A stretch of 64,000 nt of DNA from an archaeon 13_2_20CM_2_53_6 (GTDB lineage: Archaea > Thermoproteota > Bathyarchaeia > 40CM-2-53-6). The stretch is taken from contig MNDT01000061.1 of the NCBI GenBank assembly GCA_001915065.1, positions 2,954-66,953 on the forward strand, written 5' to 3'. This document shows positions 2,853 through 31,080 of the stretch, one piece after another. The position numbers were made by a program, and so were the translations under genes. The notes under the pieces are model-generated. The model saw only the letters and a list, made by a program, of their open reading frames with translations. It did no database searches and was not told the DNA's origin. How positions within the stretch are numbered: the first letter of the stretch is position 1; each line of letters starts with the position of its first letter.

Positions 2853-3377
2853 GTGGCCGGACAGTTGAGTCTCAAGGCGGTCTTCTTAGATCGGGACGGT
2901 GTGCTGACACGAGAGAGAACAGACTACGTTAAGACACCGGAAGAGCTTGAGATTCTGCCTGGTATCGGACCGCCCCTCCGTACTCTTCGAGATGGGGGAT
3001 TCCGACTGATTATTGTGACTAACCAGTCTGTAGTCGGAAGAAGACTGACTACTCACGACGAAATTGGCAGGATTCATGAGAAGTTAAAGTCCGAGCTCAA
3101 ACGAATGGGTTGTTTCGTGGATGGCATCTACTACTGTCCGCACCTGCCCGGAGAGGGATGCAGCTGTCGAAAGCCCGAGCCTGGCCTCATTCTAAGGGCC
3201 GCGGAGGACCTGGGGATCGATATCGCAGCTTCTTGGATGATTGGTGACAAGGAGATTGATCTCGAAGCGGCGAAGAGGGCTGGGTGCCGTGGTATTCGTG
3301 TCCAGACGAACCTAGGAGACTTGCAGAACGCGGTTTCTAGCATCATCAAAGCCGGAGAGAAAGGTTGGGAATGCTGA
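2853..3377 (+). CDS. gmhB: D-glycero-D-manno-heptose 1,7-bisphosphate phosphatase (HAD superfamily)
   Basis: FLDRDGV HAD motif I, zinc-binding C-x-H...C-x-C cluster (CPHLPGEGCSCRKP), GDKxxD motif; sits in an operon with hddA and gmhA. Alternative TTG start at 2865. Confidence 0.75.
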   Translation: MAGQLSLKAVFLDRDGVLTRERTDYVKTPEELEILPGIGPPLRTLRDGGFRLIIVTNQSVVGRRLTTHDEIGRIHEKLKSELKRMGCFVDGIYYCPHLPGEGCSCRKPEPGLILRAAEDLGIDIAASWMIGDKEIDLEAAKRAGCRGIRVQTNLGDLQNAVSSIIKAGEKGWEC

Positions 3378-3383
3378 GATGAT

Positions 3384-4397
3384 ATGGTGAAGATTCGGGC
3401 CAGGGCACCTCTCAGAGTCAGCTACGCAGGAGGGGGAACAGATGTCCCTCCTTATCCCGGATTGAAGGGCGGGGTGGTTCTCTCTTCTACAATTCAGAAT
3501 TACGCTTACTGTTCTATTGCGCCTCGAACTGATGGGATGGTTACTGTATTCAGGGAAGATCAAGATGTCTCCACTGGACCTCAGAGACTTGGTCAACTGG
3601 AGACTAGCGGAGAGGTGGAGTTTGTCCGAGCGGTCGCCAAGCGATTTCAGGTGGACGAAGGATTTGATGCAAATCTCAGATACGACGCGGCCCCCGGCAC
3701 AGGGCTAGGATCGTCCTCGGCACTGTGCGTCGCTCTTATTGGCGCCTTCCGCGAATGGAAGGGCGCTTCGATGACAGACTATGACATAGCAAATCTTGCC
3801 TATGATGTCGAAAGGAAGGATGTCGGAATTCCAGGAGGTCTGCAGGATCAATACGCGTCGACCTTTGGGGGCTTCAACCTGATCGAGTTCAAGAAGGGTG
3901 CAAACATCGTCAATCCTCTTCGAATAAAGCGAGAGACCTTGAACGAGCTAGAGTATAACAGCCTCCTCTGCTTCACCGGGACTACGCGACGTTCGGGCGG
4001 TATTCTTCAGAGACAGATAGAATCGTATGAAAATAGGGAGTTGAACGTCATGGACGCGCTTGAGCGTATGAAGGAATTGACGCTCGAGATGAAGGACTCA
4101 CTCCTAACCGGCAATCTCACAGAGTTCGCTAGACTGTTGAACTCTGAATGGGAGACGAAGAAGGCACTCGACTCTGCAATCTCCAATGATGAGATAGACA
4201 AGCTGCTCCAAACGGCCCGACAGAACGGGGCCATAGGCGGCAAGCTTCTAGGAGCCGGAGGCGGAGGATTCCTCTTCCTATACTGTGAGCCTGGCAAACG
4301 GGTCCATGTCGAAAAGGAGGTCGAGCGTCTCGGAGGGAAGGCCTTCCCTGTCAGATTCGATCTCGAAGGTTTGCAAACCTGGCGAAGCCCAAAGTAG
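3384..4397 (+). CDS. hddA: D-glycero-D-manno-heptose 7-phosphate kinase (GHMP kinase)
   Basis: N-terminus RAPLRVSYAGGGTD and GHMP motif PGTGLGSSSA; lies between gmhB and gmhA. Confidence 0.7.
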   Translation: MVKIRARAPLRVSYAGGGTDVPPYPGLKGGVVLSSTIQNYAYCSIAPRTDGMVTVFREDQDVSTGPQRLGQLETSGEVEFVRAVAKRFQVDEGFDANLRYDAAPGTGLGSSSALCVALIGAFREWKGASMTDYDIANLAYDVERKDVGIPGGLQDQYASTFGGFNLIEFKKGANIVNPLRIKRETLNELEYNSLLCFTGTTRRSGGILQRQIESYENRELNVMDALERMKELTLEMKDSLLTGNLTEFARLLNSEWETKKALDSAISNDEIDKLLQTARQNGAIGGKLLGAGGGGFLFLYCEPGKRVHVEKEVERLGGKAFPVRFDLEGLQTWRSPK

Positions 4398-4401
4398 GAC
4401 T

Positions 4402-5052
4402 ATGAAAACTATGCAAGATAGCCGACTAGCTCACAAACGATCAGAAGAAGAAGGCCGATCCGCCGCGGCACTGGCAGCCATTCGAAACAGCATCGAAACG
4501 AAAGAAAAAGTTGCCAAGGAGTGTCTCGATGACATCGTCGAAATGGCCAACGTAATGGCCTCAGCCCTGCAAAAGGGCCGAAAAGTTGTCTTCTTCGGGA
4601 ACGGTGGAAGTGCCGCCGACGCGCAGCACATGTCGGCGGAGCTTGTTGGAAAGTTCAAGAGAGTCCGTCCGGCCCTCCGGGCGTCTGCCCTAACGACCAA
4701 CACTTCAGTTCTGACCGCCATAGGCAACGACATCGGTTTCGATGAAATCTTTTCGCGTCAGGTCCAGGCGACATTGGAGCCCGGCGATGTCGCCGTCTGC
4801 ATCAGTACGACAGGCCGCTCAAAGAACGTTATCAGAGGCGTTCAGGAAGCGAGAAAGATCGGGGCAAAAACAATAGCCCTGACAGGCTCTGGGGGCGGTC
4901 AGCTCGCCTCGTTGTGCGATCACGAAGTGGTTGTCCCCTCGGATGATGCACAGAGGATACAGGAGTGTCATATCATGATAGGACACATCGTCTGCGAATT
5001 GATCGAGGAAATTCTCAGCGAGACTAGTTCCTGGAAAGAGAGTCTCGACTGA
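4402..5052 (+). CDS. gmhA: Phosphoheptose (sedoheptulose-7-phosphate) isomerase, SIS domain
   Basis: SIS-domain motifs GNGGSAADAQH and ISTTGRS. The ATG at 4402 follows the hddA stop at 4395-4397, so the ORF-track start at 4285 is an upstream over-extension. Confidence 0.8.
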   Translation: MKTMQDSRLAHKRSEEEGRSAAALAAIRNSIETKEKVAKECLDDIVEMANVMASALQKGRKVVFFGNGGSAADAQHMSAELVGKFKRVRPALRASALTTNTSVLTAIGNDIGFDEIFSRQVQATLEPGDVAVCISTTGRSKNVIRGVQEARKIGAKTIALTGSGGGQLASLCDHEVVVPSDDAQRIQECHIMIGHIVCELIEEILSETSSWKESLD

Positions 5053-5182
5053 AGATTCACGTTGCTGCGATTCTTCCTTTCATAACGAGTTTGTTCCAAA
5101 GCCGTAGAGCTACTTTCCGCGTAATCCTTAAGTGTGAAAATTCCAGCACCACAACCATTTCAGACGATGGGCGGCAAGGAGA

Positions 5183-7501
5183 GTGAGAAGACGTTTGTTC
5201 TTGACGAGATTACTCGGTGCACCGCAATGGGCCATTGACAAGCTTTACAATTATCTTGGACTACGCGAAGGCCTCTCCACCGCTGCAAGGTGGACTCGTG
5301 TCGGTCTGGGAGCTTCAGCAGGATTCCTGATTCTCGCAGGCGTGCTGCTACTAGCAGTCGAACCATGGGTAGTCGAAGTTTTGGGCCTATCCGCAGGGTT
5401 GATCGGGTTTGGCCTCTTCAATCTGATCTCAGCGCATGGAAAGAAGCTCACCATGCTTCGCGCGAATCAGCTCTCTTTGCTTGGTCACTTTACCGCGATG
5501 ATTGCTCTATATGTTATCGTCTCAAGAGTTCTCATCGTCAGCTACACGACGGACACGGTTGTTGGAACCTATATGGGAGTGTTGAAGGTTCTCGAGGTGC
5601 AGAGTCCATACGGTGTTTCGATCAAGCCTTTGCTCGACGCGTTTGGCTTTTCACCCTCATTCTACACGCCCGGCGTTGACGGTTCCTTCGACTTCCACCT
5701 AGCCTATCCCTCGCTAAGCTTCCTGTCGGTCCTCCCATTCTATGTCTTGGGAATCCGAGATCTGCGCGATACCGTCTTCATCTTCTTCCTTCTCTCAGTC
5801 CTAATCGTCTTCGCATTGGCCCCGGCCAAGTTCAAGAACATGAGTCTCGCACCCTTCGGCCTATTTCCAGTCGTAATCGCTGGTGGCTGGACTGATAGTG
5901 TCTGGGCCTTCTTCCTCGTCCTTACAGCATTTCTCTGGTACCGTCACCCGAAGGCCAGCTGGGCCACTCTAGGCTTGGCGATCGCAACCAAACAGATTGC
6001 CATCGTCGTCGCCCCTTTCCTTCTTATTCGACTCTGGCACGAAACCCCCCAGTCAAGAACGCGTAGTCTTCTCACAAGTTTTGCCCTGATGACCGCAGCA
6101 TTCTTCCTGCCCAATCTTCCCTTCATGATCGCCTCTCCAAATGCTTGGTGGAACGCTGTCGTGGTTCCATACCTGCCGAGTTCTCCCTCTCAGGTTCCGG
6201 GCGGCGTAGGTCTCTCGGACATCCTGCTAGACCTGGGTGTTGCGCTACCTTCCTCCTTCTATCTGATCCTGGTACTCGGCGCCTCCAGCTTCCTCCTCTA
6301 CAGCTACGCTCGACACTATCAGGGCTTGAACAGCATGGTCTTCGTCTTCCCGATATTCATCTTCTTCCTCTACTACCGCTCTTTTCCCAATTACATGGCC
6401 TACTGGGGATTCCCTCTTGTCATCGAACTAACGCGCCTCGGAGGTCCGAATCTGCGAGCGCTATTCTCAATGAGGCTACCGAACATCGCCTGGCGGCCGC
6501 CAACCGAAACACTTCTAAGAATCACCAGGAGGAGACTTACTCCCTCACTGCTGGTACTGGTTGCACTCACTTTCGCTTTCGTCGGCGCGTCTGGTGCCTA
6601 CATATCTCAAGCCGCAACGCAGCAGGCATCGATCCAGATCAACGGCGTGATGGACCCGGACAATATCGGGGCCGCGACCATGATCAACGTCACTCTGAAG
6701 AACCTATTCTCCACACCGGTGTCCCCCACCTTCTTCGTGAAATGGTGGAACCCGCTGACATACTTCTGGACCACCAATTCGACCACACTCCTAGAATCGG
6801 GAGCGCAGAACTCGTACATCATAACTGCTCCCGACGCCTTGAGCGCCGTCCCAAGAGGAGCTCAGTTCCACGTAATGATCTATGACAAGCTGACCAACCA
6901 GCTATTGGGCGAATCCTCGTCCTACAAGGCAAGCATTCCAGCCCCTCCAGTTGCGAACCCGCGCCTGAAGTGGTGGGCACTAGACGCGAGCGTCGGGAAA
7001 AAAGTGCCCTTCAGCTGGAAACTCTCCCCCATCAACACTGACCTTACTACATCCCGAATCTCTCCCTTGGGCGTAGACGGGACAGGCGGATTACAGATGA
7101 TTCTGAATTATACGAATACCGGTATCGGGATCGAACAATTGGCACTCTCGCAGAGGGTCCTTTTCAACGCCACCAGCGTAAACATCAACTTCGAGCCTCA
7201 GGGCACGAAGAGCGTTGCGGCGAATGTCATGTTCGCCGCCAGCGTGACAGACGGAACTCACATCTTGTATTTCGTTTTCTCGAACCGGACGAACCGGGAG
7301 AGCATAACCACATACTCATCCAACACTACCGTCGTCGTTCCTACAGAGGCATCTGCCTGGAACACCGTGAGGATGGACCCAGTATCGATCTGGCAAAGCC
7401 AAGGATGGAACACGCCTCAGCAAGTCACGCTAGCTATTGTCCTCAAATCAGACGCCCCCGGAGTCTACTTCGCTAGTGTTCTCAGCGTCGACCCTGCTTA
7501 G
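5183..7501 (+). CDS. Large polytopic membrane protein with a C-terminal Ser/Thr/Asn-rich extracytoplasmic domain; possible GT-C-type glycosyltransferase
   Basis: More than 10 predicted TM helices across the first ~480 aa, then a ~280-aa soluble domain rich in N-x-S/T sequons. Sits in the glycosylation cluster. No diagnostic AglB WWDYG motif, so the function is uncertain. Confidence 0.35.
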   Translation: MRRRLFLTRLLGAPQWAIDKLYNYLGLREGLSTAARWTRVGLGASAGFLILAGVLLLAVEPWVVEVLGLSAGLIGFGLFNLISAHGKKLTMLRANQLSLLGHFTAMIALYVIVSRVLIVSYTTDTVVGTYMGVLKVLEVQSPYGVSIKPLLDAFGFSPSFYTPGVDGSFDFHLAYPSLSFLSVLPFYVLGIRDLRDTVFIFFLLSVLIVFALAPAKFKNMSLAPFGLFPVVIAGGWTDSVWAFFLVLTAFLWYRHPKASWATLGLAIATKQIAIVVAPFLLIRLWHETPQSRTRSLLTSFALMTAAFFLPNLPFMIASPNAWWNAVVVPYLPSSPSQVPGGVGLSDILLDLGVALPSSFYLILVLGASSFLLYSYARHYQGLNSMVFVFPIFIFFLYYRSFPNYMAYWGFPLVIELTRLGGPNLRALFSMRLPNIAWRPPTETLLRITRRRLTPSLLVLVALTFAFVGASGAYISQAATQQASIQINGVMDPDNIGAATMINVTLKNLFSTPVSPTFFVKWWNPLTYFWTTNSTTLLESGAQNSYIITAPDALSAVPRGAQFHVMIYDKLTNQLLGESSSYKASIPAPPVANPRLKWWALDASVGKKVPFSWKLSPINTDLTTSRISPLGVDGTGGLQMILNYTNTGIGIEQLALSQRVLFNATSVNINFEPQGTKSVAANVMFAASVTDGTHILYFVFSNRTNRESITTYSSNTTVVVPTEASAWNTVRMDPVSIWQSQGWNTPQQVTLAIVLKSDAPGVYFASVLSVDPA

Positions 7502-7743
7502 CCAGCGTCTCGACACACACCCTTAGGCCTTGTAGCTTCGGTCGATGAGCGGCCTCGCCAGAGGATTGGTTCTAGGCACCCGGAGTCGAACGGAGGGTGC
7601 TTCTTGTTTTGTAATGGCAAGCCATACGTGAACATGAACTCATTTATTGAGGCGATAAATGCGCACAACTCTGGAGGCATGGCTACCTGACGAATCTAAA
7701 GGGACTACTGCTAGCCGGGGGACATGGTACCCGACTCCGTCCC

Positions 7744-8763
7744 TTGACCTATACGGGAAACAAGCACATGCTTCCCATCGCCAACAAGCCGATGCTCATG
7801 TACGGCTTCGACCAGATCAGAGTCGCAGGGATCAAAGAGATCGGAGTCATACTCGGACCCCTACAAGAAGGCATAGTGGAAGCTCTCGGAGACGGCTCGA
7901 AATATGACGTCAAGATTACCTACATCGACCAGCCTGACCCGAAAGGCATAGCCCATGCAGTCCTGATCTCACGCGGCTTTCTAGGAGACTCTCCCTTCGT
8001 GGTGCACCTTGGCGATAACTTGTTGAAGGACAGTGTTCCTGAACTAGGACAGGAATTTCTCAAGTCAGACTCTGACGCGACTGTTGTATTAACCAAGGTG
8101 AAGGATCCGAGCAGGTTCGGCGTCGTCCAGATAGAGAACGGAAGAATCGTTAAGCTAGTGGAGAAGCCGAAGGAATACATTAGCGACCTTGCTTTGGCCG
8201 GGGTCTACTTCTTCCGACCTAGCATATTCGCGGCCATTGAGAAGCTGAAGCCGAGTTGGAGGAATGAGTTGGAGATCACAGATGCGATACAAAAGCTGTT
8301 AGATATGGGGGGAAAGATTGGCTATCACGAAGTATCAGGCTGGTGGAAGGATACGGGAAGACCTGAAGATATTCTGGAGGCCAATCAGCTTGTGTTGAGA
8401 GATTTGAAACTACTCGTCGAGGGCAAGATCGAGAAGGGCGTTTCGGTTTCGGGAAATGTGGAAGTTGGCGAAGGGTCCATTGTACACACTGACACAGCAT
8501 TGCGCGGGCCCGTTATCGTAGGTGAGAATTCTGAGATCGGGGACGGGGCACGCGTGGGACCCTATACCTCCATTGGGAGCAGAGTAAAGATTCTTGGAGC
8601 TGAGATTGAGAACAGCATAGTTCTCGACGGAACCGTAGTGAATTGTAGGGAAAGGATTACGGATAGCATTATCGGGAAGAATTCACGGATTGTTTCAGAT
8701 CCCGCCCACCAGTCGGCAGGAAGAAAGTTCGTGGTGGGCGAAAGCACTTTCGTGAGCCTCTAG
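7744..8763 (+). CDS. Sugar-1-phosphate nucleotidyltransferase with C-terminal left-handed beta-helix (archaeal long-form RmlA-like glucose-1-phosphate thymidylyltransferase); true start lies upstream
   Basis: The GLLLAGGHGTRLRPLT pyrophosphorylase signature is encoded at 7699-7743, upstream of the called TTG and in the same frame. An ATG at 7679 sits in the +1 frame as ATG-GCT-ACC-TGA, so a -1 shift at ACC/CTG would give MATLTNLKGLLLAGG. The C-terminal hexapeptide repeats form an LbH domain. Co-located with rmlB/C/D. Confidence 0.7.
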   Translation: MTYTGNKHMLPIANKPMLMYGFDQIRVAGIKEIGVILGPLQEGIVEALGDGSKYDVKITYIDQPDPKGIAHAVLISRGFLGDSPFVVHLGDNLLKDSVPELGQEFLKSDSDATVVLTKVKDPSRFGVVQIENGRIVKLVEKPKEYISDLALAGVYFFRPSIFAAIEKLKPSWRNELEITDAIQKLLDMGGKIGYHEVSGWWKDTGRPEDILEANQLVLRDLKLLVEGKIEKGVSVSGNVEVGEGSIVHTDTALRGPVIVGENSEIGDGARVGPYTSIGSRVKILGAEIENSIVLDGTVVNCRERITDSIIGKNSRIVSDPAHQSAGRKFVVGESTFVSL

Positions 8764-8798
8764 TCCCATGCCCTTCGAGCGCGCGTTACTCCCGTTGA

Positions 8799-9539
8799 TC
8801 AGTGGGTGAGATATCCTATCAAGACGAAAGGACGCATTCTGAGGATCGAATGCAGGAGAGTTCGTTCTGGAGAAATACCCCGCTCCTTTCGTGCTCGACC
8901 AGCTTGTATTTGGTAGGCAATAGACCTCGCAAGTGTCATCCGTCGTCGATGCAACACAACTACTCCTTTGTCCAGCTTCACCTTGAAGCCCGCTCTCCGG
9001 AGCCGTAGGTCAAGGTCGGACTCCCACGCGTAGACGTCTCTGAATCCTCCCACCGCCTTTAGAGCCGCGATCGAGATAGCTCGTGCCCCTCCACATGACT
9101 GTTCTCCCAAAGGAGAGATTGTATATGTTAGTTCCCAGAATGAAATGAGCCTGTTCAGCACGCTTCTCGATGAATCGGTTTTAGCAATTGCGGAAACGAC
9201 TGCGAACCTATCCATCTGGGGCAATATGATCGCCAAGAAATTTGGAGAAAGGGTCATGTCCGCGTCAACGACGACTAGGGCGTCTCCAATCGCTCTGCTG
9301 AAGCCTAGTTGTAGATTTTCTGATATGCTGTTCCTCCAGTTCAAACGATCCTTCCGAAGAATCAACGATGGGCTTCGCTCCAATTGCTTCTTCGCAAGAT
9401 CCACCGTTCGATCGGTACATCGATCTGCAACGACGATGATAAGTCCGGCGGATGGTTTGTGTCTTAGAATTGATTCTAGGCAGTCGCCTATGTAGTCCTC
9501 TTCATTATGTGCACAGACGAGGACTGTAGCAGAAGTCAA
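8799..9539 (-). CDS. GT2-family glycosyltransferase (soluble GT-A)
   Basis: N-terminal LVCAHNEE fold and DxD in VVVDADM. Confidence 0.6.
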   Translation of the reverse strand: MTSATVLVCAHNEEDYIGDCLESILRHKPSAGLIIVVADRCTDRTVDLAKKQLERSPSLILRKDRLNWRNSISENLQLGFSRAIGDALVVVDADMTLSPNFLAIILPQMDRFAVVSAIAKTDSSRSVLNRLISFWELTYTISPLGEQSCGGARAISIAALKAVGGFRDVYAWESDLDLRLRRAGFKVKLDKGVVVLHRRRMTLARSIAYQIQAGRARKERGISPERTLLHSILRMRPFVLIGYLTH

Positions 9540-9545
9540 CCAAGG

Positions 9546-9911
9546 TTACTCTATGTTCGTCGCCAGAAAATACACTAATGAAATTGCGAGAGGAAAGAGG
9601 AATATCGCGTAGTAGAAGACTAGGAGGCCACTTGCGAACATTACTCCAAGGGCTGCAATGTCCCTTCTCGCCCTCGGATTGGCCAAATCAATCGTCCATA
9701 CACCTAGAGCCCAAAGACTGAATCCAATCATTGCCAACAAGGCAGCGATGTTGAAAAACAGAACAGGAAAATATGAGCCTCCGATCGGCTTATCGTTGGG
9801 AATGGTGGGGAGGCTGTTGAGTATTGGCCCTAGGAGATAGTTGACGATCACCACTACTCCGAGGCCGTATGAGCCCCAAATAATCGGTAAAAGGGCGATT
9901 CGCTTCTGCAT
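9546..9911 (-). CDS. Small integral membrane protein, hypothetical
   Basis: 121 aa with 3-4 hydrophobic helices; immediately downstream of the GT2 gene on the same strand. Confidence 0.3.
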   Translation of the reverse strand: MQKRIALLPIIWGSYGLGVVVIVNYLLGPILNSLPTIPNDKPIGGSYFPVLFFNIAALLAMIGFSLWALGVWTIDLANPRARRDIAALGVMFASGLLVFYYAIFLFPLAISLVYFLATNIE

Positions 9912-10257
9912 CGAATCTTCAATCGCAGTCCACTACGAGATATTGATATAGTATTCGGATGCCTCTAGTTGGCTCGGCGTTTGCCCTGGTTTACTTTCTG
10001 ATGTGAGCATCTCTCGAGGTTGGTCCTCGGGAGGAACATGGGTGAGAATGGATGCCTTGCCCACCGAGGGTTATCCTTAGGCATTCGGGGGCCATCCATT
10101 CGGCATTTCCAAGCTCGGTGGAAATGGGCAAGTTCCTTCAGCAATTTTCCTCTTCTACTTTTTTTCCGGAACCTCCTTGTAACCTATCCTTCGACATGGT
10201 ACTCATAGGAAAGACATTGTCTACCTCTGCTTCTGTCGCCGACTAGTCGATAGGAAT

Positions 10258-11265
10258 TCACCACTCTTCCTTCCATGGGAGCTCTGAAAGAACCTTCTCA
10301 GTCGCCAAATGCCCCCACCAAGAAGAGTGTTCACGATACCAATTCACAGTCCTCGTTAATGCGGCGTCAAATTCGATTGCGGGCTTCCATCCGAGCTGGC
10401 GACGTGCCTTTGCGGAGTTCAGGCTGTATCTGAAATCGTGCCCCGGCCTGTCATCAACTTCAACTAACTCGGCCGAGGGAATGTCAAGCAAACGAAGCAA
10501 ACGTTGCGCCAGGTCTCTATTCGACAATTCATTTCCAGCAGAAATGTTGTACACTTGCCCCGGATCTCCTTTCTGTATCGCGAGCTCTATTGCGGCACAG
10601 AAATCATCCACGTATATCCAATCTCGAATTTGTCTTCCCCCACCGTAGATGGGAATGCCCTTTCCTCGTATGGATCGAATGATGGCTTTGGGAATGAACT
10701 TCTCGGGGTGTTGCCAAGGTCCGAAGTTGTTCGTACACCTAAGAATAACTGTTTGAAGCTTGTATGTCGCGGCCCAAGCACACACGATTAGGTCGGCGGC
10801 GGCTTTGGTTGCCGAGTAAGGGCTGGACGGATTAAGGGGACTCTCTTCGTCAAAAGACCCACGGTCGATCGATCCATAGACCTCATCCGTCGAAATATGC
10901 ACCAACCTGTCAACGTTCACCTCATTAGCAGCTCTAACGAGGTTGAAGACTGCCCTAGCGTTGCTCTCAAAGAATGGCTCTGAGTTCGCAATGCTTCTAT
11001 CCACATGAGTCTGGGCTGCAAAGTTCACGATTAAGTTAGCATTCTTCACGACTCGCCGAGTGAACTCATAGTCGGCGAGGTCCCCTTTGACGAAATGGTA
11101 ACGCTTGTCTTCGCTAATGTCTTGAAGACTTGCACGGTTGCTTCCGAGACTTTCGTTATCGATGTTAGTGACCCTGAGGTTCTTACGAGAGGATCGAAGC
11201 AGACGATGAACGAAGTTGCTTCCAATGAAACCTAGACCTCCAGTTACAATGATTTGATCTGTCAA
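10258..11265 (-). CDS. rmlB: dTDP-glucose 4,6-dehydratase
   Basis: Rossmann TGGLGFIGSNF, catalytic YSATKAA (YxxxK), and other RmlB-typical blocks (ISTDEVYG). Confidence 0.85.
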   Translation of the reverse strand: MTDQIIVTGGLGFIGSNFVHRLLRSSRKNLRVTNIDNESLGSNRASLQDISEDKRYHFVKGDLADYEFTRRVVKNANLIVNFAAQTHVDRSIANSEPFFESNARAVFNLVRAANEVNVDRLVHISTDEVYGSIDRGSFDEESPLNPSSPYSATKAAADLIVCAWAATYKLQTVILRCTNNFGPWQHPEKFIPKAIIRSIRGKGIPIYGGGRQIRDWIYVDDFCAAIELAIQKGDPGQVYNISAGNELSNRDLAQRLLRLLDIPSAELVEVDDRPGHDFRYSLNSAKARRQLGWKPAIEFDAALTRTVNWYREHSSWWGHLATEKVLSELPWKEEW

Positions 11266-11364
11266 ATAACGGTGGCCTCTGTCATTCCGGTCATGGCACT
11301 TTCAGCCACTCGCTGCCTTTCACTCAAGCTTGAAAAGGCATGCATCCTGTGTTGTGTTTCGCTC

Positions 11365-12288
11365 TTGGACAAGCTTCTTGTCGTTGGTTCCACTGGGTTA
11401 GTAGGATCGAAAATTGCCTCTTTGGCTCATGGTTATGAATTTGAGACGTATAACACTCATAACTCCAGACCTTCGCCCTTTCCAAACTCGACAAAGCTCG
11501 ACATTACGGACCGAGACGCCACTATGACTTTATTGGCCAAGATCCGCCCTTATGCGATAATCAACGTTGCGGCCCTGACAAATGTGGACTATTGTGAGAC
11601 TCATAAGGAAGAAGCTGAACGGGTTAACGTTGGCGGGGCTACGAGCCTAGCTGATGCGGCGCGTCAGAACAACAGCAGATTTGTCCACGTATCAACCGAC
11701 TCGGTGTTCGATGGAACGTATGGCCACTACACTGAAGACGATATGCCCAATCCGATCAACCACTATTCGAAGACTAAGCTGGATTCCGAGACTGTTGTAG
11801 CTCAGCTCTTGAGCTACGCGATTGCTAGACCTAGCGTCGTTTATGGTTGGCATGCTCGGGTTGGTAGAACACCTTCCGGTTCGACGAAAGCGATGAACTT
11901 TGCCATGTTTGTTTTGGACAGGCTCGGCAAGAGTGAGCCGGTTAGGGTCGTTAGAGACCAGTATAGTTCTCCCACGTTTGCAGACAACTTGGCTCATTCA
12001 CTGCTCAGACTCGCAAGGCTAACCGAGAATGGCATCTTTCATACGGCAGGCAGGTCATGTCTTAGCCGCTACGAGTTTGCCCTATTGTTGGCCAAGATTT
12101 TCGGGTACCCGCCTGATTTGGTGCAACCTGTCTCTACTGGTGAATTCGATCAGGCGGCCCAAAGGCCAAAGAATTGCTGCCTCCGAGTCGAGAAGGCGGA
12201 GAAGGCCCTAAAAATGCACTTTCTAACTGCGCAAGAGGGATTGATTGAGATGAAGAAACAGGCCCGGTCCAAGCCCAATGACCGTTGA
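11365..12288 (+). CDS. rmlD: dTDP-4-dehydrorhamnose reductase
   Basis: N-terminal LLVVGSTGLVG Rossmann motif and YSKTKLDSE (YxxxK). A TTG start at 11365 is likely. The ORF-track start at 11254 would overlap the divergent rmlB by 12 nt. Confidence 0.7.
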   Translation: MDKLLVVGSTGLVGSKIASLAHGYEFETYNTHNSRPSPFPNSTKLDITDRDATMTLLAKIRPYAIINVAALTNVDYCETHKEEAERVNVGGATSLADAARQNNSRFVHVSTDSVFDGTYGHYTEDDMPNPINHYSKTKLDSETVVAQLLSYAIARPSVVYGWHARVGRTPSGSTKAMNFAMFVLDRLGKSEPVRVVRDQYSSPTFADNLAHSLLRLARLTENGIFHTAGRSCLSRYEFALLLAKIFGYPPDLVQPVSTGEFDQAAQRPKNCCLRVEKAEKALKMHFLTAQEGLIEMKKQARSKPNDR

Positions 12289-12404
12289 ATCGAATGCCTG
12301 CTGGTTCGAATAAGCGGCGTCGGAGCGGGCGATATACGTCCGCATGAATGTGCATATCCGAAGGCGAGGAGAGAGGAATTTGGTTGTTCTCGACGTTATC
12401 CTTC

Positions 12405-13415: not shown

Positions 13416-13592
13416 GATTTTACAGTGTCATTTTTTAGTTTGGGGCTTCCATGAACTATTGAAGCCTGTGTCGAGATCTCTCATGGTATTCACGTTATCC
13501 CATGACTTTATGATCATCGCCTGGTTAGGGCAGAATACAATTGCAAAGACTTCGCAAATTAGTCAAATTGAATTTGACTATTCATCGACTAT

Positions 13593-14135
13593 TTGCATGA
13601 AGAATCGATTTGCAGGTTCGAACTGGAGTCGTTTAGCTTGACTACCCTGAATCTGGGATGCGCAAACGACCCTTGGGGAGATGTCAAGGTTGACATTTCC
13701 TTCAGGACTCAGACCGGTGCACCCTCGCATCCTGACATGATTGCTGATGCTCACAACCTGCCCTTTCGAGATGCTTCATTTGAGTTTACTCGTTGTTGGC
13801 ATGTCTTGGAACACTTGAAGAATCCACATCAAGCTTTGAGAGAAATACGTAGGGTCTCAAGTCATGGCGAAATTAGGTTTCCGTATGATGACGGTTTCAA
13901 GAGGGAAGCGATTTGGGGAATCTCGATCCTTCAACCCATGATATTCTGGGGTGCCATAAAGACCCGCAGCGTAAGGGCCCATCTTTGGAAGATTCATCCA
14001 GACTCGCTAGCGCATGGTTGCAAAGTCAGGCTGAACCATCACTTCCTATTCGCTCCGATCAGCGGCCGGAAGGCCCACTATTTTCGAGGCTTCGCCTTTC
14101 CTAGAATAAAGCGTGAGTGGGTTCTGACATACTAA
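13593..14135 (+). CDS. Class I SAM-dependent methyltransferase domain protein
   Basis: Motif I-like LNLGCANDPWGDVKVD, an acidic loop, and HVLEHL motif (Methyltransf_11-like). The precise start is uncertain. Confidence 0.5.
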   Translation: MHEESICRFELESFSLTTLNLGCANDPWGDVKVDISFRTQTGAPSHPDMIADAHNLPFRDASFEFTRCWHVLEHLKNPHQALREIRRVSSHGEIRFPYDDGFKREAIWGISILQPMIFWGAIKTRSVRAHLWKIHPDSLAHGCKVRLNHHFLFAPISGRKAHYFRGFAFPRIKREWVLTY

Positions 14136-14267
14136 AAATGTGGCAGTGCGACCGATTATAAGAACCGAGCAGACTAGGAAACCCGCCTTCAATGCTCCCT
14201 GATTCCAGAAATTTCAGAAAGTCTGTAAGTGGAAGCCATAGACTTGATTCTACCCGAGTTTTCTTGA

Positions 14268-14759
14268 CTATTTGTGCGGCGCCGAGTTCCACTCAAAAGG
14301 TTTCGATGTCCTCGGATCGACAATCCGGGGGTCATTCCACGGCCTTCTTTGTTCGTCAGGGTTACTGGCATCATAGAGGCGAGTTACCAAGTAGAGCGTA
14401 AACGAGGCTTTTGGCCCTAGTGTCTTCGTACCGTGCCAATAATGTCCCGGCACTCGAACCATCTGAAGCTTCTCGCTACTTGCGATGATTTCCGATAATT
14501 GTTTTTGAGTTGGGGAGTCTTCCTCATCATCGTAGGCGCATATCTTCATCGTGCCCTTCAGGACAATCAGGTAGTCCACTTGGCCTTTCTCATGTCTGTG
14601 CCAAGCTCTGATTGTCCCAGGATAGGTAAAAGACAAGTTCGATTGCATGATTCTGTCTTGTCCTAATAGCATCTTCCAGTCTTCTCTCATTATTTCTGCA
14701 AAGAAGCCACGTTCGTCCACCGATTTGTTGATGTCCTGAACCTTAACGCCTGGTAGCAT
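14268..14759 (-). CDS. rmlC: dTDP-4-dehydrorhamnose 3,5-epimerase (cupin)
   Basis: DERGFF motif and the conserved His/Tyr pattern of RmlC (WHRHEKGQVDY). Confidence 0.75.
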   Translation of the reverse strand: MLPGVKVQDINKSVDERGFFAEIMREDWKMLLGQDRIMQSNLSFTYPGTIRAWHRHEKGQVDYLIVLKGTMKICAYDDEEDSPTQKQLSEIIASSEKLQMVRVPGHYWHGTKTLGPKASFTLYLVTRLYDASNPDEQRRPWNDPRIVDPRTSKPFEWNSAPHK

Positions 14760-14921
14760 GAGAACGGATCTGATCCACGTTTATTAAAAAGCATCTAACT
14801 GTATTCCAGTAAACAATTGAGAATCCTAATCTAGTAGTCTGATCAATCTTTCCAATCGATGAAATGGGTGTTTTCAAATGATCGATCCTCAAATGGTCCC
14901 GCCTTGTGAGACGGCCCAACA

Positions 14922-16163
14922 ATGATGCTTCTATCGAACCTTTCGGCGTGTAGAGCTTGCGGTAGCTCTCAACTGAGACTTGGCCTTGACCTAGGCCGGC
15001 TCCCGCTTGCGAATTCGTTTCTGTCGCGCCAGCGTGCCATGGACGCGACCCCCGACCCACTATATCCGCTAAGAGTATTTCGTTGCGAGAATTGCGGGCT
15101 CATCCAACTCCTTGACGTGGTTGACAAGAAAGAGATGTTTGACGATTACGTTTTCCTAACATCAACTGCTAGAACGACAGTGCTTCACTTCGACCGTTAT
15201 GCCGAAGAACTGACCAAGAGACTATCTCTGAACTCGGAGGATCTAGTGGTTGACATAGGGAGTAACGACGGTACCCTGCTTAAGGCCTTCAAACAACGAG
15301 GCACTCGAGTCTTGGGAATAGAGCCCGCCCACAACCTAGCCATCCGAGCTACGAAAGAGGGGATACCCACCCTTAACGAGTACCTTGGACCGGAAACGGT
15401 GGAACGAATTGGGAGAAGTCAGTCGCGACTGGTAACAGCAAACAATGTTGTATCGCATGTCAACGACTTGAACGGATTCATGAAAACAGTATCCATGCTT
15501 CTGGCCCCCCAAGGGCTCTTTGCGTTCGAGGTCCCCTGGGTGGTCGATGTCATGCACAATTACAATTTCGACATCATCTATCATGAACACCTCTCTTATT
15601 TTGGGTTCAAGCCTCTAGCACGAGTATTGGAGAGTCACAACCTGGAGCTGATCGACCTGCAACAATTCCCCGAAATACATGGAGGCACTCTACGAGGATT
15701 GGCATCACATACTGATGCCTTCGCGAAGCGATCTGACGTCCTCAAGAAAGCATTCCTCAATGAAGAAAGGGGGGCAAGCTTTCAAGCGCTTGAACAATTT
15801 GCGAACCAGGTCTACTCCATCAAGACTAGGTTATCAGAGATGCTTCACAGGCTGAAGAAAGAAGGAAAGAAGATCGTTGGTTACGGCGCCCCCGCCAAAG
15901 CCACGATCCTGCTGAACTATTGCTCCATAGACAGGTCTGTGCTCGATTTCGTTACCGATACCACCCCTTTGAAGCAGGGCAGATTCGTTCCAGGAGTACG
16001 AATCCCCATAGTTTCGCCAAACGAATTGGGAAAATCAAGGCCTGATTACGCCCTTCTCCTAGCTTGGAATTTCAAGGATGAAATTGTTCAGAAGGAGCAG
16101 GAATACCTCAAGTCGGGTGGAAAGTTCATAATTCCCTTTCCAGAACCAAGAATCTTGAATTAA
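14922..16163 (+). CDS. NDP-hexose C-methyltransferase (TylCIII/EryBIII-like): N-terminal Zn-ribbon, SAM MTase domain, C-terminal C-methyltransferase domain
   Basis: CRACGS...CENCG zinc ribbon and a VVDIGSNDG SAM motif. A ~120-aa C-terminal domain typical of sugar C3-methyltransferases. Confidence 0.65.
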   Translation: MMLLSNLSACRACGSSQLRLGLDLGRLPLANSFLSRQRAMDATPDPLYPLRVFRCENCGLIQLLDVVDKKEMFDDYVFLTSTARTTVLHFDRYAEELTKRLSLNSEDLVVDIGSNDGTLLKAFKQRGTRVLGIEPAHNLAIRATKEGIPTLNEYLGPETVERIGRSQSRLVTANNVVSHVNDLNGFMKTVSMLLAPQGLFAFEVPWVVDVMHNYNFDIIYHEHLSYFGFKPLARVLESHNLELIDLQQFPEIHGGTLRGLASHTDAFAKRSDVLKKAFLNEERGASFQALEQFANQVYSIKTRLSEMLHRLKKEGKKIVGYGAPAKATILLNYCSIDRSVLDFVTDTTPLKQGRFVPGVRIPIVSPNELGKSRPDYALLLAWNFKDEIVQKEQEYLKSGGKFIIPFPEPRILN

Positions 16164-16198
16164 GCCCACCTTCAACTCGCCAACGTAGGTCCATGTGA

Positions 16199-16858
16199 AT
16201 GACTGGGGAGATAATTGCAACGATAGCAATCGTCACGGCGGTAAGAACGTTCTGGATTGCCACCCGTCCACTCCCGCACGATGTGCAGCCGGCCATCATG
16301 GTAGGATTGCGAAGGATTCTGCGGGTTCTTAGTAGTGAGGTCAAGGTCGAAGGGAATGCGCCTTATGGCTTAGTCTGGTATGGGATCAATCTACCTTTCG
16401 CCAAACTTGCCGCTTACGACGGTCGAAGATGGATGATCGCACTCGCGCTCGTTGACAGTCTCTTTCTCTGGCTAAGCCAGACCTTGGGTCTCTTAGGATT
16501 CGCCGCTTACCTGTTCATAGGTACTTTCCAACTCCTTCGCGCTCCCTGGAATGTAACGATAGACTGGATTATTGTCTTGGGACCCATTGCCTGGTGGTTC
16601 CTAATCATTGCGCCAATCGCCAAGCTGCCGATAGGTCTGCCGTTGCACGCGTTCGGGGATACTGGCCGCGGGCTTTTCTATCAACACAACTACATCTATT
16701 ATGGCCTGCTCGGAACACTCTGGCTGATTGTCTTCTTCGATCTCTTCCTTCAAGCGATCCGTGATCTATCAATAGTCGCGTTTGGATTCGCATGGGCTCC
16801 TCTTTTGGGGTATCTATACCTGAGGAGGCGTTCAAGTGGAGCCTTACATCCGAAGTAA
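16199..16858 (+). CDS. Integral membrane protein, hypothetical (glycan cluster)
   Basis: 219 aa, about 6 TM helices, Trp-rich; no recognisable motif. Confidence 0.35.
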   Translation: MTGEIIATIAIVTAVRTFWIATRPLPHDVQPAIMVGLRRILRVLSSEVKVEGNAPYGLVWYGINLPFAKLAAYDGRRWMIALALVDSLFLWLSQTLGLLGFAAYLFIGTFQLLRAPWNVTIDWIIVLGPIAWWFLIIAPIAKLPIGLPLHAFGDTGRGLFYQHNYIYYGLLGTLWLIVFFDLFLQAIRDLSIVAFGFAWAPLLGYLYLRRRSSGALHPK

Positions 16859-16868
16859 TTGGCAACCC

Positions 16869-17978
16869 TCACACCTCATATTCTTTCAAGGTAATAGCAA
16901 GAGACGACTCGAAAGCTTTCGTGTTGAACGCTTCTGCTCGTGTCGAAGCATGGTGAGAAAGCCGAGCCCGCAACGTTTCGTTCCCCATAACCTTCGAGAT
17001 TAGTTGAGAAGCCTCGTCGGTGTTCTTCCATCTATATCCCACATCCTCGGTCACTATTTCACGTGGACCACCGCTGTCATGCACGACTGGGACACAGCCT
17101 GCGGCCATGGCCTCGACAATCGTGATTCCAAAGTGTTCGTTCTCAGCGCAGTGGACGTAGACTTTTGCCCTCGAAACAACGTCTCTTGCCTTTCTCAGGG
17201 GTGATAAGACCACCGAGAGGTTGGGGGGCGCATTCCTTTCGAGAGACTTATAGTAAGGGTCATCTGTGTTCGGTACGCTTCCGATTATCATAAATCGAGT
17301 CTTCGGAAGTTTCCGTGCTATCTCTGCGAGAAGATGAAATCGTTTCTCGGGCACTATCCGGCCGGTAGCTATCGCGATGTCTTCCCGATCGCTGTTAGAT
17401 GACTTGTAGAGCTCTATGGGGCATGGCGGATAGAGTGTAGTCGAATTCCTGCGCCAGATCTGCCTCACAAATTCTCGTGAATAATCAGAGACAGCAAGGA
17501 ACCTGTCTACGTGTTTAGCCCGGTTTCGATAAAAAAGTCTGGCTGGTGAATAATATAGCCTCCACAGGGGCGATGATGGCGCGGATTGCAGATGCCTAAA
17601 GTATTCTGGAAAATAGCAATACTGGACTATAGGGGCTCGGATACTCGGAACATATCCTACATCTTGAGTACCGAGAACAAGACTAAACTGCTTTTTCCCT
17701 GAGAGAACCTTACGAAATTGGTTCTGGTAGTAATATAGCCTCTGGTAAAGAAGAGCCCAAGATCGTATCAATGGTTTGAATTCTGGGTAAGAGAGCTGCC
17801 AGACCTTTTCAAAAAGCCCGTAGCATCCAAAGAAATCCTCAAACCGCTGAACGTCGAATTCTTCTGACAAAAGCGTGACTTCGTGTCCCATATTCATTCC
17901 AGCAAGCATTGAGTGAATGGCGACACGTTCACCGCCGCCCATAATGCTCATTCTAGGATGAACAACCAGAATCCTCAT
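16869..17978 (-). CDS. GT4-family glycosyltransferase (GT-B fold)
   Basis: C-terminal EHFGITIVEAMAAGCVPV (the E-x7-E region typical of GT4). Confidence 0.7.
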   Translation of the reverse strand: MRILVVHPRMSIMGGGERVAIHSMLAGMNMGHEVTLLSEEFDVQRFEDFFGCYGLFEKVWQLSYPEFKPLIRSWALLYQRLYYYQNQFRKVLSGKKQFSLVLGTQDVGYVPSIRAPIVQYCYFPEYFRHLQSAPSSPLWRLYYSPARLFYRNRAKHVDRFLAVSDYSREFVRQIWRRNSTTLYPPCPIELYKSSNSDREDIAIATGRIVPEKRFHLLAEIARKLPKTRFMIIGSVPNTDDPYYKSLERNAPPNLSVVLSPLRKARDVVSRAKVYVHCAENEHFGITIVEAMAAGCVPVVHDSGGPREIVTEDVGYRWKNTDEASQLISKVMGNETLRARLSHHASTRAEAFNTKAFESSLAITLKEYEV

Positions 17979-18099
17979 CTATAGATCACCTGTTCATGAA
18001 TGATATTTTCAAGAGTTCATTGCGAGGTTGCAGACAGTTCGACAGCCTAGGTCGTTAGAACTCAAGGATTAAAGCAATCTCGTGTCCTGAATCGTCAGT

Positions 18100-18891
18100 T
18101 TGAAGACAAGCATCATAATCGTCAATTATAAGGTCCCGGACCTTTTGGAAAAGTGCTTGCAAAGCATTCGCGAGCACACGAGTGATTATGAGGTCCTCGT
18201 TCACGACAATGGTCCCCCCAATCCCAACCTGGGCTTTGCAAGAGCGAATAACCTACTCATACGCAAAGCCCGAGGCGACTACATTGTTCTCTTGAATCCT
18301 GATACTTGGGTAACTGAAGGTTGGCTCGAAAAGCTCATCGAGACAGCTCAATCGGATCCCAAGATAGGTGTCGTTCAGTCAAAGACCCTTCGTCCAAACG
18401 GACTCCTCGATAGCACAGGTCATCGATACACTTTCGTGTACGGGGTCTATATCCCCGGCGATAGAGGGGCTCTAGAAGTCGACAGGGGCCAGTATGATTC
18501 TGAGACCGAACTGAAGACCTGCACATTCGCTTCGGTCCTTGTGAAGAGAAGAGTGTTTGAGACATCGGGTCTCCTGGACGAGAAGATGTTCCTCTACTGC
18601 GAGGATATGGAGTTCTGCCTTCGTGCAGCCAGACACGGATGGCGAATAGTATATTGTCCTAAGAGTGTTGTATATCACGTCAGACATGGTTCGGCGTCCA
18701 TGGTAGTGAAGATCTCGCCGTGGCAGGTCTACTTCGCATATATACAATTCAGATATTTTGGGTTCATGCCATTTCTCGCCTTCATCTTCACAACAGTTGT
18801 CCGACTTCCAGCCGGTATAAGCCGCAAAGATGCAACCTATCTGAGGAGGAAGCTCTCCATGATCCCGAAATTGAAACGTATGGTCACGTAG
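18100..18891 (+). CDS. GT2-family glycosyltransferase
   Basis: IIIVNYK...DNG and DxD-like LNPDT; a C-terminal amphipathic/TM segment. TTG start. Confidence 0.65.
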   Translation: MKTSIIIVNYKVPDLLEKCLQSIREHTSDYEVLVHDNGPPNPNLGFARANNLLIRKARGDYIVLLNPDTWVTEGWLEKLIETAQSDPKIGVVQSKTLRPNGLLDSTGHRYTFVYGVYIPGDRGALEVDRGQYDSETELKTCTFASVLVKRRVFETSGLLDEKMFLYCEDMEFCLRAARHGWRIVYCPKSVVYHVRHGSASMVVKISPWQVYFAYIQFRYFGFMPFLAFIFTTVVRLPAGISRKDATYLRRKLSMIPKLKRMVT

Positions 18892-27724: not shown

Positions 27725-27728
27725 AGTC

Positions 27729-29130: not shown

Positions 29131-29224
29131 TTTTACAATTCGGCCCTCTATTTGTACGCTGACGTTTTCTGGTACCTGAAGGGTTCTCTGAAGAGTCTCA
29201 AATCGTGCCGTGGATCCTCGCCCT

Positions 29225-29608: not shown

Positions 29609-29770
29609 GAGTTGTCACATGTATTTCTTGAACCCGAGGCCTACTGCTACTTCTCTGAAGCATTGTCTGCAAAAGTTGAGCCCGTATTTTCTAACGATGG
29701 GACCGTATTGGCCGCATCGTTTGCAGGGGCGAGCACCCTTCCCATACTTCCGCTGTTTCCTTGGTTTGAT
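29606..29770 (-). CDS. rps14p: 30S ribosomal protein S14 type Z (uS14, zinc-binding), 54 aa
   Basis: Not in the ORF track because it is under 60 aa. Translates to [54 protein letters not shown], with the CxxC...CxxC motif. Lies between rpl5 and rps8 as in the canonical operon. Confidence 0.8.
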
Positions 29771-29786
29771 CTTGGCCATGTCCGGT

Positions 29787-30326: not shown

Positions 30327-30327
30327 C

Positions 30328-31077: not shown

Positions 31078-31080
31078 TTT

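Follow-up and report, generated by a model that had tools for sequence, protein, structure and literature searches.

A surface-glycan gene island with a heptose module in a soil Bathyarchaeia archaeon

Gene content of the island

The 64-kb stretch of contig MNDT01000061.1 from the Bathyarchaeia archaeon 13_2_20CM_2_53_6 (the window, meaning all 64,000 nucleotides analyzed) carries a real but fairly ordinary surface-glycan gene island of a soil archaeon. Enzyme identities were assigned using Pfam and NCBIfam profiles judged against NCBI equivalog cut-offs, sequence matches to the Protein Data Bank (PDB), and six-frame open reading frames (ORFs). These matches bear out the core of a first-pass annotation, which had described an island of nucleotide-sugar enzymes and glycosyltransferases that combines a heptose and a deoxythymidine diphosphate (dTDP)-6-deoxyhexose branch with a sugar C-methyltransferase (Table 1). 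That annotation placed the island at 2853-18891; it does lie there, but its true limits are wider on both sides, extending from a short-chain dehydrogenase/reductase (SDR) gene truncated at the first base of the window to around 24000.

The heptose branch is encoded by gmhB, hddA, and gmhA, a tight triad on the forward strand with spacers of 6 and 13 bp. The identities first proposed for these genes withstand comparison with solved heptose-pathway enzymes, which are matched at E values of 1e-30 to 1e-75. HddA aligns end to end with three solved heptose-7-phosphate kinases (3k85, 1e-74; 4n3o, 4e-65; 4usk WcbL, 5e-65), with a best PDB score of 255 bits, and its relatives are annotated by JGI as heptose-7-phosphate kinase. 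It possesses both the N- and C-terminal GHMP domains of Pfam and is thus a GHMP-family kinase, not a PfkB-type HldA/HldE. GmhA matches PDB entry 1tk9 at 8e-50 with the GNGGSAADAQH, TAIGND, and RIQExH segments conserved; its ORF is open from 4285 with a likely start at 4411, and a protein of 213 residues is called in identical contigs. GmhB matches 3l8h at 7e-30 and the GmhB entries 4pnh, 3l8e, and 2gmw at about 1e-26 (to 2e-26), and its translation carries the motifs DxDG, TNQS, and CPHxPxxxCxCRKP. Reassignment of the kinase to mevalonate kinase and of the isomerase to a GlmS-like SIS protein, outcomes that would have undone the heptose branch, both failed. Mevalonate kinase scores 94 bits for HddA (fucokinase, the other runner-up, 130) versus 262 in NCBIfam and 255 in the PDB, and SIS families other than GmhA reach at most 42 bits for the isomerase versus 173-190 as GmhA.

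The deoxyhexose branch resembles the dTDP-L-rhamnose pathway RmlABCD, known in archaea from Agl11-14 of Haloferax volcanii and from Sulfolobus. RmlA-long, RmlB, and RmlD of the window match at or near equivalog level, whereas its RmlC is divergent and the start of its rmlA is anomalous. Of rmlB, rmlC, and rmlD, all called present from the first, RmlB passes its cut-off, RmlD nearly does, and RmlC is recognized weakly, as a cupin. This cupin finds RmlC 3ryk in the PDB at 1e-10 and the cupin domain of Cap5F at 1.5e-4, and a homologue in the relative L091 is 71% identical; its family assignment appears right, with its exact reaction uncertain. The rmlD ORF is open from 11254, leaving the start uncertain, and 307 residues are called in the identical contig L002.

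The rmlA frame, open from 7651, includes the conserved KGLLLAGGHGTRLRPLT loop (GxGTRL), and the first canonical start, TTG 7744, falls past that loop. One annotation pipeline chose CTG 7687, which overlaps the TGA of an out-of-frame mini-ORF (ATG-GCT-ACC-TGA, 3 codons from ATG 7679). The start region is identical in four assemblies, while relatives begin rmlA with a normal ATG, either as Met directly before KG (L007) or with an ATG-led extension (L091). The window gene may either use a non-canonical or reinitiation start or be frameshifted and impaired.

The predicted NDP (nucleoside diphosphate)-hexose 3-C-methyltransferase was recognized at the outset as a TylCIII/EryBIII-type enzyme, an assignment that its three-domain architecture (Methyltransf_13, PF08421, 70 bits; S-adenosylmethionine (SAM) domain, PF13489, 57 bits; Methyltransf_14, PF08484, 174.5 bits) confirms. 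Its translation displays four zinc cysteines (CxxC...CxxC), a DIGSNDG motif, and an HEH segment, and full-length PDB matches are MtmC (4rv9, 7e-89), TcaB9 (3ndi, 2e-72), and a sugar 3-C-methyl transferase (5t64, 9e-72) that we take to be KijD1. The layout, zinc cysteines, and HEH segment are those of the actinomycete TylC3/MtmC/TcaB9/KijD1 enzymes of mycarose and nogalose biosynthesis, although the window sets them in an archaeal surface-glycan island rather than in a secondary-metabolite cluster. The gene set of the island also mirrors that of a nogalose-type pathway (RmlA, RmlB, epimerase, C-methyltransferase, ketoreductase, O-methyltransferases). All of the closest solved relatives are 3-C-methyltransferases, MtmC being the D-mycarose 3-C-methyltransferase, and the same family includes C5-methylating members such as NovU. 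A 3-C-methyl-6-deoxyhexose product is accordingly a prediction in which C3 and C5 methylation are not separable by sequence. Because a 2,3-dehydratase is not present, the substrate would retain its 2-OH.

Directly after the triad lies a gene for a polytopic membrane protein of 772 residues, whose presence, like that of one family 4 glycosyltransferase (GT4), had been noted correctly. Neither this protein nor 24 close homologues matched a Pfam or NCBIfam family (GT-C families at E ≤ 1). An exhaustive profile search gathered 875 cluster representatives of its family, and within the shared region several distant members match Pfam ALG3 (above threshold, at 36 bits) or GT87 (at 25 bits). In an alignment of 42 family sequences with a mean identity of 23%, eight residues are invariant, and D238 is nearly so. 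One of the eight (42/42) is D124, which belongs to a YxTD motif that follows predicted helix four and is a candidate for the conserved acidic residue in the first extracytoplasmic loop of GT-C enzymes. An AlphaFold 2 model built from this alignment (predicted local distance difference test, pLDDT, 88.6; predicted template-modeling score, pTM, 0.87) divides the protein into a helical membrane domain (residues ~1-477) and a beta-sandwich ectodomain (~482-771); an earlier model from 25 close homologues (≥57% identity) reached a pLDDT of 50 and was discarded. Foldseek searches of the PDB pair the membrane part with yeast ALG3 (9s6r_A, TM score 0.56 on the target over 359 columns) and EmbB (6x0o), and the C-terminal part with carbohydrate-binding modules and jelly-roll glycosidases (CBM/GH11). 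A profile search of the family against PDB sequences gave nothing significant, and a further large-scale protein search, the third, with the diverse alignment as query again listed little beyond the close clade. The oligosaccharyltransferase AglB was considered and rejected, given that the translation lacks a WWDxG motif and matches no such family.

From the modeled fold, we conclude that the 772-residue protein is probably a GT-C glycosyltransferase of an unannotated, ALG3/GT87-like family that is new within the fold. Among the known GT-C enzymes ALG3 (GT58), PimE (GT87), and EmbB, its polytopic N-terminal domain is fold-similar to ALG3 and EmbB, and EmbB likewise carries an extracytoplasmic carbohydrate-binding-like domain. 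It differs from the curated GT-C families in that its own sequence finds no match in Pfam, NCBIfam, or the PDB. By analogy with such enzymes, among whose functional parallels are AglS of Haloferax and GtrC of GtrABC systems, its donor would be a polyprenyl-phosphate sugar, used at the outer side of the membrane. GT-C homologues lie 0.1-5 kb from the triad in 4/4 of the closer Bathyarchaeia relatives (L007, L009, L090, L091); near the triads of the more distant Bathyarchaeia locus L061 and of other archaeal loci, none was found.

Of the five family 2 glycosyltransferases (GT2s) originally counted, profiles recover four, three within the range first given and one outside it at 1225-2682; a fifth was not detected. 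The outlying enzyme scores 89 bits on the NCBIfam PgaC model and 85 on CelA, far under the cut-offs, and has hydrophobic segments at its N-terminus and in its C-terminal third. The two additional methyltransferases also both exist, one inside that range and the CmcI-family enzyme outside it. Directly upstream of the 246-residue GT2 is a gene for a 121-residue membrane protein with a 57% identical homologue in L091; assignment to GtrA was rejected in the absence of any Pfam or NCBIfam family match at E ≤ 1. Gtr systems likewise pair a small multispanning membrane protein with a GT2. With the GT-C gene nearby, the arrangement follows the three-part logic of GtrA/GtrB/GtrC or ArnC/ArnEF/ArnT.

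The island contains two SDR genes. The truncated one at the window start is 338 residues long in L002, where its best match is GDP (guanosine diphosphate)-L-fucose synthase (151 bits versus a cut-off of 500), and L091 keeps a 76% identical copy beside its triad. The second SDR best matches a LegB-like NCBIfam model (147 bits versus a cut-off of 475). Immediately upstream of the island in related contigs is a conserved polytopic membrane protein of 1034-1049 residues (L002 680-3829, reverse strand; L091 4930-8034, reverse strand), with a large sequon-containing extracellular part, a C-terminal anchor, and no Pfam or NCBIfam match; it may be another uncharacterized membrane transferase or a surface protein.

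Table 1. Features of the glycan island and its surroundings in the window; scores are in bits
Feature	Coordinates	Strand	Evidence and remarks
SDR epimerase/reductase, 3' part	23..892	+	Pfam Epimerase 131; gene begins upstream of window
Membrane-embedded GT2, PgaC/CelA synthase-like, 485 aa	1225..2682	-	Pfam Glyco_trans_2_3 85
GmhB-like HAD-IIIA heptose 1,7-bisphosphate 7-phosphatase	2853..3377	+	NF006506 159.5 (cut-off 178)
HddA-type GHMP kinase (D-glycero-D-manno-heptose 7-phosphate 1-kinase)	3384..4397	+	NF049969 262 (cut-off 600)
GmhA sedoheptulose-7-phosphate isomerase (SIS)	4411..5052	+	NF010546 190 (cut-off 276); TIGR00441 179 (cut-off 209)
Predicted GT-C-fold membrane glycosyltransferase, 772 aa, with C-terminal beta-sandwich (CBM-like) ectodomain	5183..7501	+	
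RmlA_long glucose-1-phosphate thymidylyltransferase with left-handed beta-helix (LbH) tail	7687..8763	+	TIGR01208 402 (cut-off 320)
GT2, 246 aa	8799..9539	-	Pfam Glycos_transf_2 67.5
Membrane protein of 121 aa with 3-4 hydrophobic segments	9546..9911	-	Directly upstream of GT2 8799-9539
RmlB dTDP-glucose 4,6-dehydratase	10258..11265	-	TIGR01181 389.8 (cut-off 365.1); same name in GenBank for identical protein
RmlD-type dTDP-4-dehydrorhamnose reductase	11365..12288	+	Pfam RmlD_sub_bind 219; TIGR01214 214 (cut-off 224)
GT2, 336 aa, one C-terminal hydrophobic segment	12405..13415	-	Pfam Glycos_transf_2 67
Small class I SAM methyltransferase	13593..14135	+	Pfam Methyltransf_11 39.5; NCBIfam matches weak
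RmlC-like cupin, divergent, 163 aa (NDP-4-keto-6-deoxyhexose epimerase family)	14268..14759	-	Pfam dTDP_sugar_isom 63.7
Predicted NDP-hexose 3-C-methyltransferase, TylC3/MtmC/TcaB9 type	14922..16163	+	Three-domain Pfam architecture; full-length PDB matches
Polytopic membrane protein, 219 aa	16199..16858	+	Hydrophobicity scan; no family match (Pfam, NCBIfam)
GT4	16869..17978	-	Pfam Glycos_transf_1 85
GT2, 263 aa	18100..18891	+	Pfam Glycos_transf_2 63.7; rhamnosyltransferase subfamily weakly, 34
Two-transmembrane-segment protein	19014..19544	+	No family match; homologue 49% identical in L091
Second SDR, epimerase/dehydratase family	21320..22192	+	Pfam Epimerase 182; past the range first given
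CmcI/rhamnosyl-O-methyltransferase-family SAM methyltransferase	23220..23936	-	Pfam Methyltransf_24 59.8; RMNT_CmcI 50.9
Archaeal ribosomal-protein operon (L22, S3, S4e, L6, L32e, L19e, L18, S5, L30)	26007-33879	-	
Orc1/Cdc6 gene	36468-37706	+	After the ribosomal operon
Secreted sequon-rich protein, runs off window end	63210..64000	+	Signal-peptide-like N-terminus; not part of island

Conservation, setting, and origin

The locus recurs on at least six independent contigs by identical-protein look-up, including MNKC01000023.1 of GCA_001920575.1. Identical proteins are deposited from grassland-soil metagenome-assembled genomes under the names Crenarchaeota archaeon 13_1_20CM_2_53_14, archaeon 13_2_20CM_2_53_6, and Candidatus Bathyarchaeota archaeon, and GenBank labels HddA and the C-methyltransferase as hypothetical proteins. 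The ribosomal-protein operon, whose L19e, L32e, and S4e proteins are of the archaeal/eukaryotic type, begins about 2 kb past the island; together with the Cdc6 gene it occupies the region 2-13 kb downstream, which places the island on the core chromosome and not on a plasmid or virus.

Conservation was followed with a tblastn matrix and with gene maps of L007, L009, L090, and L091. All four loci keep gmhB, hddA, gmhA, and the GT-C gene, with HddA 71-86% identical. In L091 (HddA 74% identical), the order is 1034-residue membrane protein, GDP-fucose-synthase-like SDR, gmhB, hddA, gmhA, GT-C, rmlA, rmlB, rmlD, and rmlC. No counterpart was found in L091 of the small methyltransferase, the GT2s at 1225, 8799, and 12405, the GT4, the 219-residue membrane protein, the CmcI-family methyltransferase, or the C-methyltransferase, and the last was likewise not found in L007 or L009. 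The G+C content is mostly lower in the variable genes (0.45-0.50) than in the triad and GT-C gene (0.53-0.545). The island thus divides into a core conserved across the lineage and a periphery that varies by strain. Since the C-methyltransferase is not conserved among relatives, C-methyl decoration would be a strain-level embellishment of the kind typical of surface-glycan hypervariability, and its insertion in this strain means that the end product may differ from plain rhamnose.

Variation also occurs within the population. In the otherwise identical contig L006, the GT-C gene is split into ORFs of 540 and 208 residues (L006 5624-7862), and the GT2 of 8799-9539 is mostly deleted, with a remnant of 16% of its length (~9124-9311). 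Island genes thus show decay or variation at the level of the population.

The closest HddA relatives are 66-94% identical and carry Bathyarchaeia names where named. Among the matches listed, which make the taxonomic picture a sample and not a census, the next tier lies at about 52% identity and includes both Thermoplasmata and Chloroflexota; the best bacterial identity, 51-52%, equals that to Thermoplasmata. A neighbor-joining tree of these matches, drawn without support values, interleaves archaeal with bacterial sequences and sets the window clade on its own long branch. A bacterial origin, for which the hddA phylogeny had been put forward as a check, is therefore not borne out in the form of a recent transfer, which we rejected: no close bacterial donor appears among the matches listed, and relatives 71-86% identical share the core in syntenic arrangement. 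The sequence relationships instead fit old, repeated transfer of the heptose module between domains.

Heptose activation and competing readings

GmhA, a GHMP-type HddA, and a HAD-IIIA GmhB likewise occur together in the bacterial GDP-D-glycero-alpha-D-manno-heptose pathway (Aneurinibacillus thermoaerophilus S-layer, Campylobacter jejuni capsule, Burkholderia WcbL), and the triad strongly matches solved enzymes of C. jejuni, Bacteroides, and Burkholderia. The window differs in its archaeal host, in scores below the NCBI equivalog cut-offs, and in lacking a linked HddC, which in the bacterial loci sampled mostly stands directly upstream of hddA. The absence of a short HddC, reported from the start, holds within the 64-kb window: a phmmer search of all six-frame ORFs with the RmlA catalytic domain (E ≤ 10) returned a single NTP_transferase, and since this is of the rmlA_long type, no HddC is present there.

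To place this absence, 80 HddA-relative loci from species-representative genomes (matches listed, with the closest Bathyarchaeia absent) were compared, along with five archaeal or metagenomic loci obtained by exact look-up. Most of the bacterial loci listed carry a nucleotidyltransferase of 235-260 residues within about 100 bp upstream of hddA; two such enzymes that were scanned are HddC/ManC-like, with 176-224 bits on the HddC model. No NTP_transferase match was found within 10 kb of the triad in L008 (Thermoplasmata), L039 (Methanomassiliicoccus), or L061 (Bathyarchaeia). L079 (Thermoplasmata) has two weak matches only (28-41 bits, in ORFs of ~590 residues), and near the triad of L009 there is only a GalU-like nucleotidyltransferase. 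L083 (Methanomassiliicoccales) carries a ManC-like long nucleotidyltransferase 4 kb from the triad, with 229 bits on mannose-1-phosphate guanylyltransferase and 104 on HddC. HddC is also absent at some Chloroflexota, Actinomycetota, and Bacillota loci among the matches listed. The HddC-less triad is thus a recurrent architecture, and its occurrence in archaeal loci without an NTP_transferase makes it independent of a linked RmlA.

Module variants accompany this picture. GmhA and GmhB form one fused ORF in L008, L039, L049, L070, and L079 (~10900-12400 in each), which are archaeal (Methanomassiliicoccus, Thermoplasmata) and clostridial; such fusions cross-contaminated the iterated GmhA and GmhB hidden Markov models, and only the higher-scoring assignment per ORF was used. 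A different variant is seen in the HddC-less loci L017, L021, and L027 (Dehalococcoidia/Chloroflexota), where two GmhA-like SIS genes flank gmhB-hddA.

As a whole, the locus is best explained, with a probability of roughly 0.75, as a chromosomal surface-glycan island with a conserved core and strain-variable periphery in which the heptose is activated by an unlinked enzyme. Most likely, a ManC/HddC-type guanylyltransferase encoded elsewhere acts on heptose-1-phosphate, as suggested by the HddC/ManC-like genes that precede bacterial hddA and by the ManC-like enzyme near the L083 triad. Several observations weigh against this explanation. HddA, GmhA, and GmhB all fall under their equivalog cut-offs as divergent members, so that exact substrate and anomer are inferred only. 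RmlC reaches just 49 bits on TIGR01221 (cut-off 155). In-frame ATG, GTG, and TTG codons are all missing before the GxGTRL loop of rmlA, whose product is possibly impaired. Finally, a priming transferase, a flippase, and AglB are not in the island, which leaves an N-glycan, O-glycan, glycolipid, and exopolysaccharide indistinguishable.

The first-pass annotation had offered another solution to heptose activation, in which a promiscuous long RmlA converts both glucose-1-phosphate (to dTDP-glucose) and heptose-1-phosphate and renders a dedicated HddC unnecessary. RmlA is indeed the only nucleotidyltransferase in the window and is encoded on the same strand as gmhA, two genes downstream; the order triad, GT-C, rmlA is kept in L091, and an rmlA-long gene lies less than 8 kb away in L007. 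Long sugar-1-phosphate nucleotidyltransferases of archaea are notable for their promiscuity, Sulfolobus ST0452 being an example. However, the enzyme exceeds the rmlA_long equivalog cut-off yet reaches 34 bits on the HddC model (cut-off 300) and 128 on mannose-1-phosphate guanylyltransferase, the adjacent rmlB, rmlD, and rmlC fully account for the presence of rmlA, and the gene has no canonical start before its catalytic loop in this strain. With triads in L008, L039, and L061 free of any NTP_transferase match within 10 kb, and only weak or GalU-like candidates in L079 and L009, dual duty of RmlA finds no support in the comparison and seems unlikely. A nucleotide-free route, with heptose-1-phosphate or bisphosphate as the end product, as a direct donor for a neighboring transferase, or in small-molecule use, could draw on the HddC-less arrangement, which recurs across several orders of archaea as well as at some loci of Chloroflexota, Actinomycetota, and Bacillota. 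It could also draw on the GT4 gene that directly follows the triad in L007 and L008, given that some GT4 enzymes, e.g., trehalose phosphorylase, use sugar-1-phosphates. But the gene after the triad in the window encodes a GT-C protein rather than a GT4, every characterized use of the triad ends in an NDP-heptose, and absence within 10 kb does not mean absence from the genome. The existence of a heptose-containing archaeal N-glycan further implies an activated donor (PMC11407970), and we regard this route as very improbable.

Least probable of all, with hardly any weight in our estimate, is that the two branches make one sugar: the "rhamnose" genes and SDRs would act on NDP-heptose to give a single modified (6-deoxy or epimerized) heptose resembling those of Campylobacter capsules. 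The GDP-fucose-synthase-like SDR does adjoin the triad and is conserved there, the cupin matches RmlC poorly, and in Campylobacter an RmlC-like cupin and GDP-fucose-synthase-like reductases act on GDP-heptose. Set against this, RmlA-long and RmlB lie beyond, and RmlD nearly reaches, the equivalog cut-offs for dTDP-glucose enzymes, and the best structural relatives of the cupin by sequence are genuine RmlC enzymes. In addition, the closest solved relatives of the C-methyltransferase, MtmC and TcaB9, act on dTDP-4-keto-6-deoxyhexoses.

Proposed pathway and archaeal context

Under the preferred reading of two separate sugars with unlinked heptose activation, GmhA would convert sedoheptulose-7-phosphate to D-glycero-D-manno-heptose-7-phosphate, HddA would phosphorylate C1 to give the alpha-anomer by analogy with characterized HddA, and GmhB would remove the 7-phosphate. 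The resulting heptose-1-phosphate would then be activated by the unlinked ManC/HddC-type guanylyltransferase. In parallel, RmlA-long, RmlB, the RmlC-like cupin, and RmlD would lead from glucose-1-phosphate to a dTDP-6-deoxyhexose. The MtmC/TcaB9-type enzyme would 3-C-methylate a dTDP-4-keto-6-deoxyhexose intermediate, and together this enzyme, the cupin, and RmlD would produce a 3-C-methyl-6-deoxyhexose, much as the pathways to nogalose and mycarose do. The GT-C transferase, encoded between gmhA and rmlA, may work on the outer side of the membrane with a dolichyl-phosphate-sugar donor. To these, the strain-specific periphery would add four GT2s, one GT4, and two more methyltransferases, of which one belongs to the rhamnosyl-O-methyltransferase family. 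The lipid carrier, the flippase, the oligosaccharyltransferase, and the acceptor proteins would be encoded outside the island.

The expectation that heptose would be unusual in an archaeal surface glycan proved overstated. The N-glycan of Thermoplasma acidophilum contains D-glycero-D-galacto-heptose, and a glycan with this sugar has also been modeled onto a pilin from Thermoplasmatales (PMC11407970, PMC12448462). There are reports of archaeal heptose nucleotidyltransferases of the HldE type (PMC11573728), and rhamnose is a component of a Haloferax N-glycan (PMC11407970). Among the matches listed, the triad occurs in Thermoplasmata, Methanomassiliicoccales, Halobacteriales, and Bathyarchaeia. 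The T. acidophilum N-glycan establishes heptose in an archaeal protein glycan, and Thermoplasmata genomes encode HddA homologues that are about 50% identical. In the literature searched, which leaves out most subscription journals, there was neither a paper tying HddA-type genes to archaeal glycans nor a precedent for C-methyl sugars in such glycans.

Bathyarchaeia are abundant in soils and sediments. To our knowledge, archaeal glycan biosynthesis has been detailed for only a handful of cultured species, with nothing described for this lineage. The island predicts a heptose and possibly a C-methylated 6-deoxyhexose on the cell surface, and it points to a recurring archaeal heptose module without the usual guanylyltransferase. 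Thermoplasmatales N-glycans contain an as yet unexplained heptose, for which the triad supplies gene candidates. A broader proposal would make the HddC-less triad of Bathyarchaeia, Thermoplasmata, Methanomassiliicoccales, and Halobacteriales the hitherto unrecognized genetic basis of archaeal glycoprotein heptose, including that of the T. acidophilum N-glycan, with activation by an enzyme other than HddC. The linked GT-C protein would then be an outer-face transferase specific for heptose or a heptose glycan, possibly with a dolichyl-phosphate-heptose donor. We know of no such donor and consider the proposal in this full form speculative and rather doubtful. Two features are modestly novel: the archaeal heptose module that lacks HddC, and the GT-C family, which is confidently modeled yet unannotated and carried in databases as "hypothetical protein". 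The locus carries familiar pathway logic into another lineage and does not overturn current understanding.

A sequon-rich protein at 63210 had been suggested as acceptor of the glycan. It is secreted by prediction, and its 9 N-x-S/T sequons in 263 residues represent a threefold excess over the ~2.9 expected from its own composition, making it a plausible glycoprotein. It lies at least 39 kb away beyond the ribosomal operon, however, and nothing ties it to the island.

Elsewhere in the 64-kb window, no tRNA or Rfam element was detected. The AT skew is strong at 28-34 kb because the ribosomal-protein operon lies there, and a replication origin may be located near the Cdc6 gene. A pair of hydantoinase/oxoprolinase A and B subunit genes, unrelated to the glycan island, occupies 49130-52917 on the forward strand.

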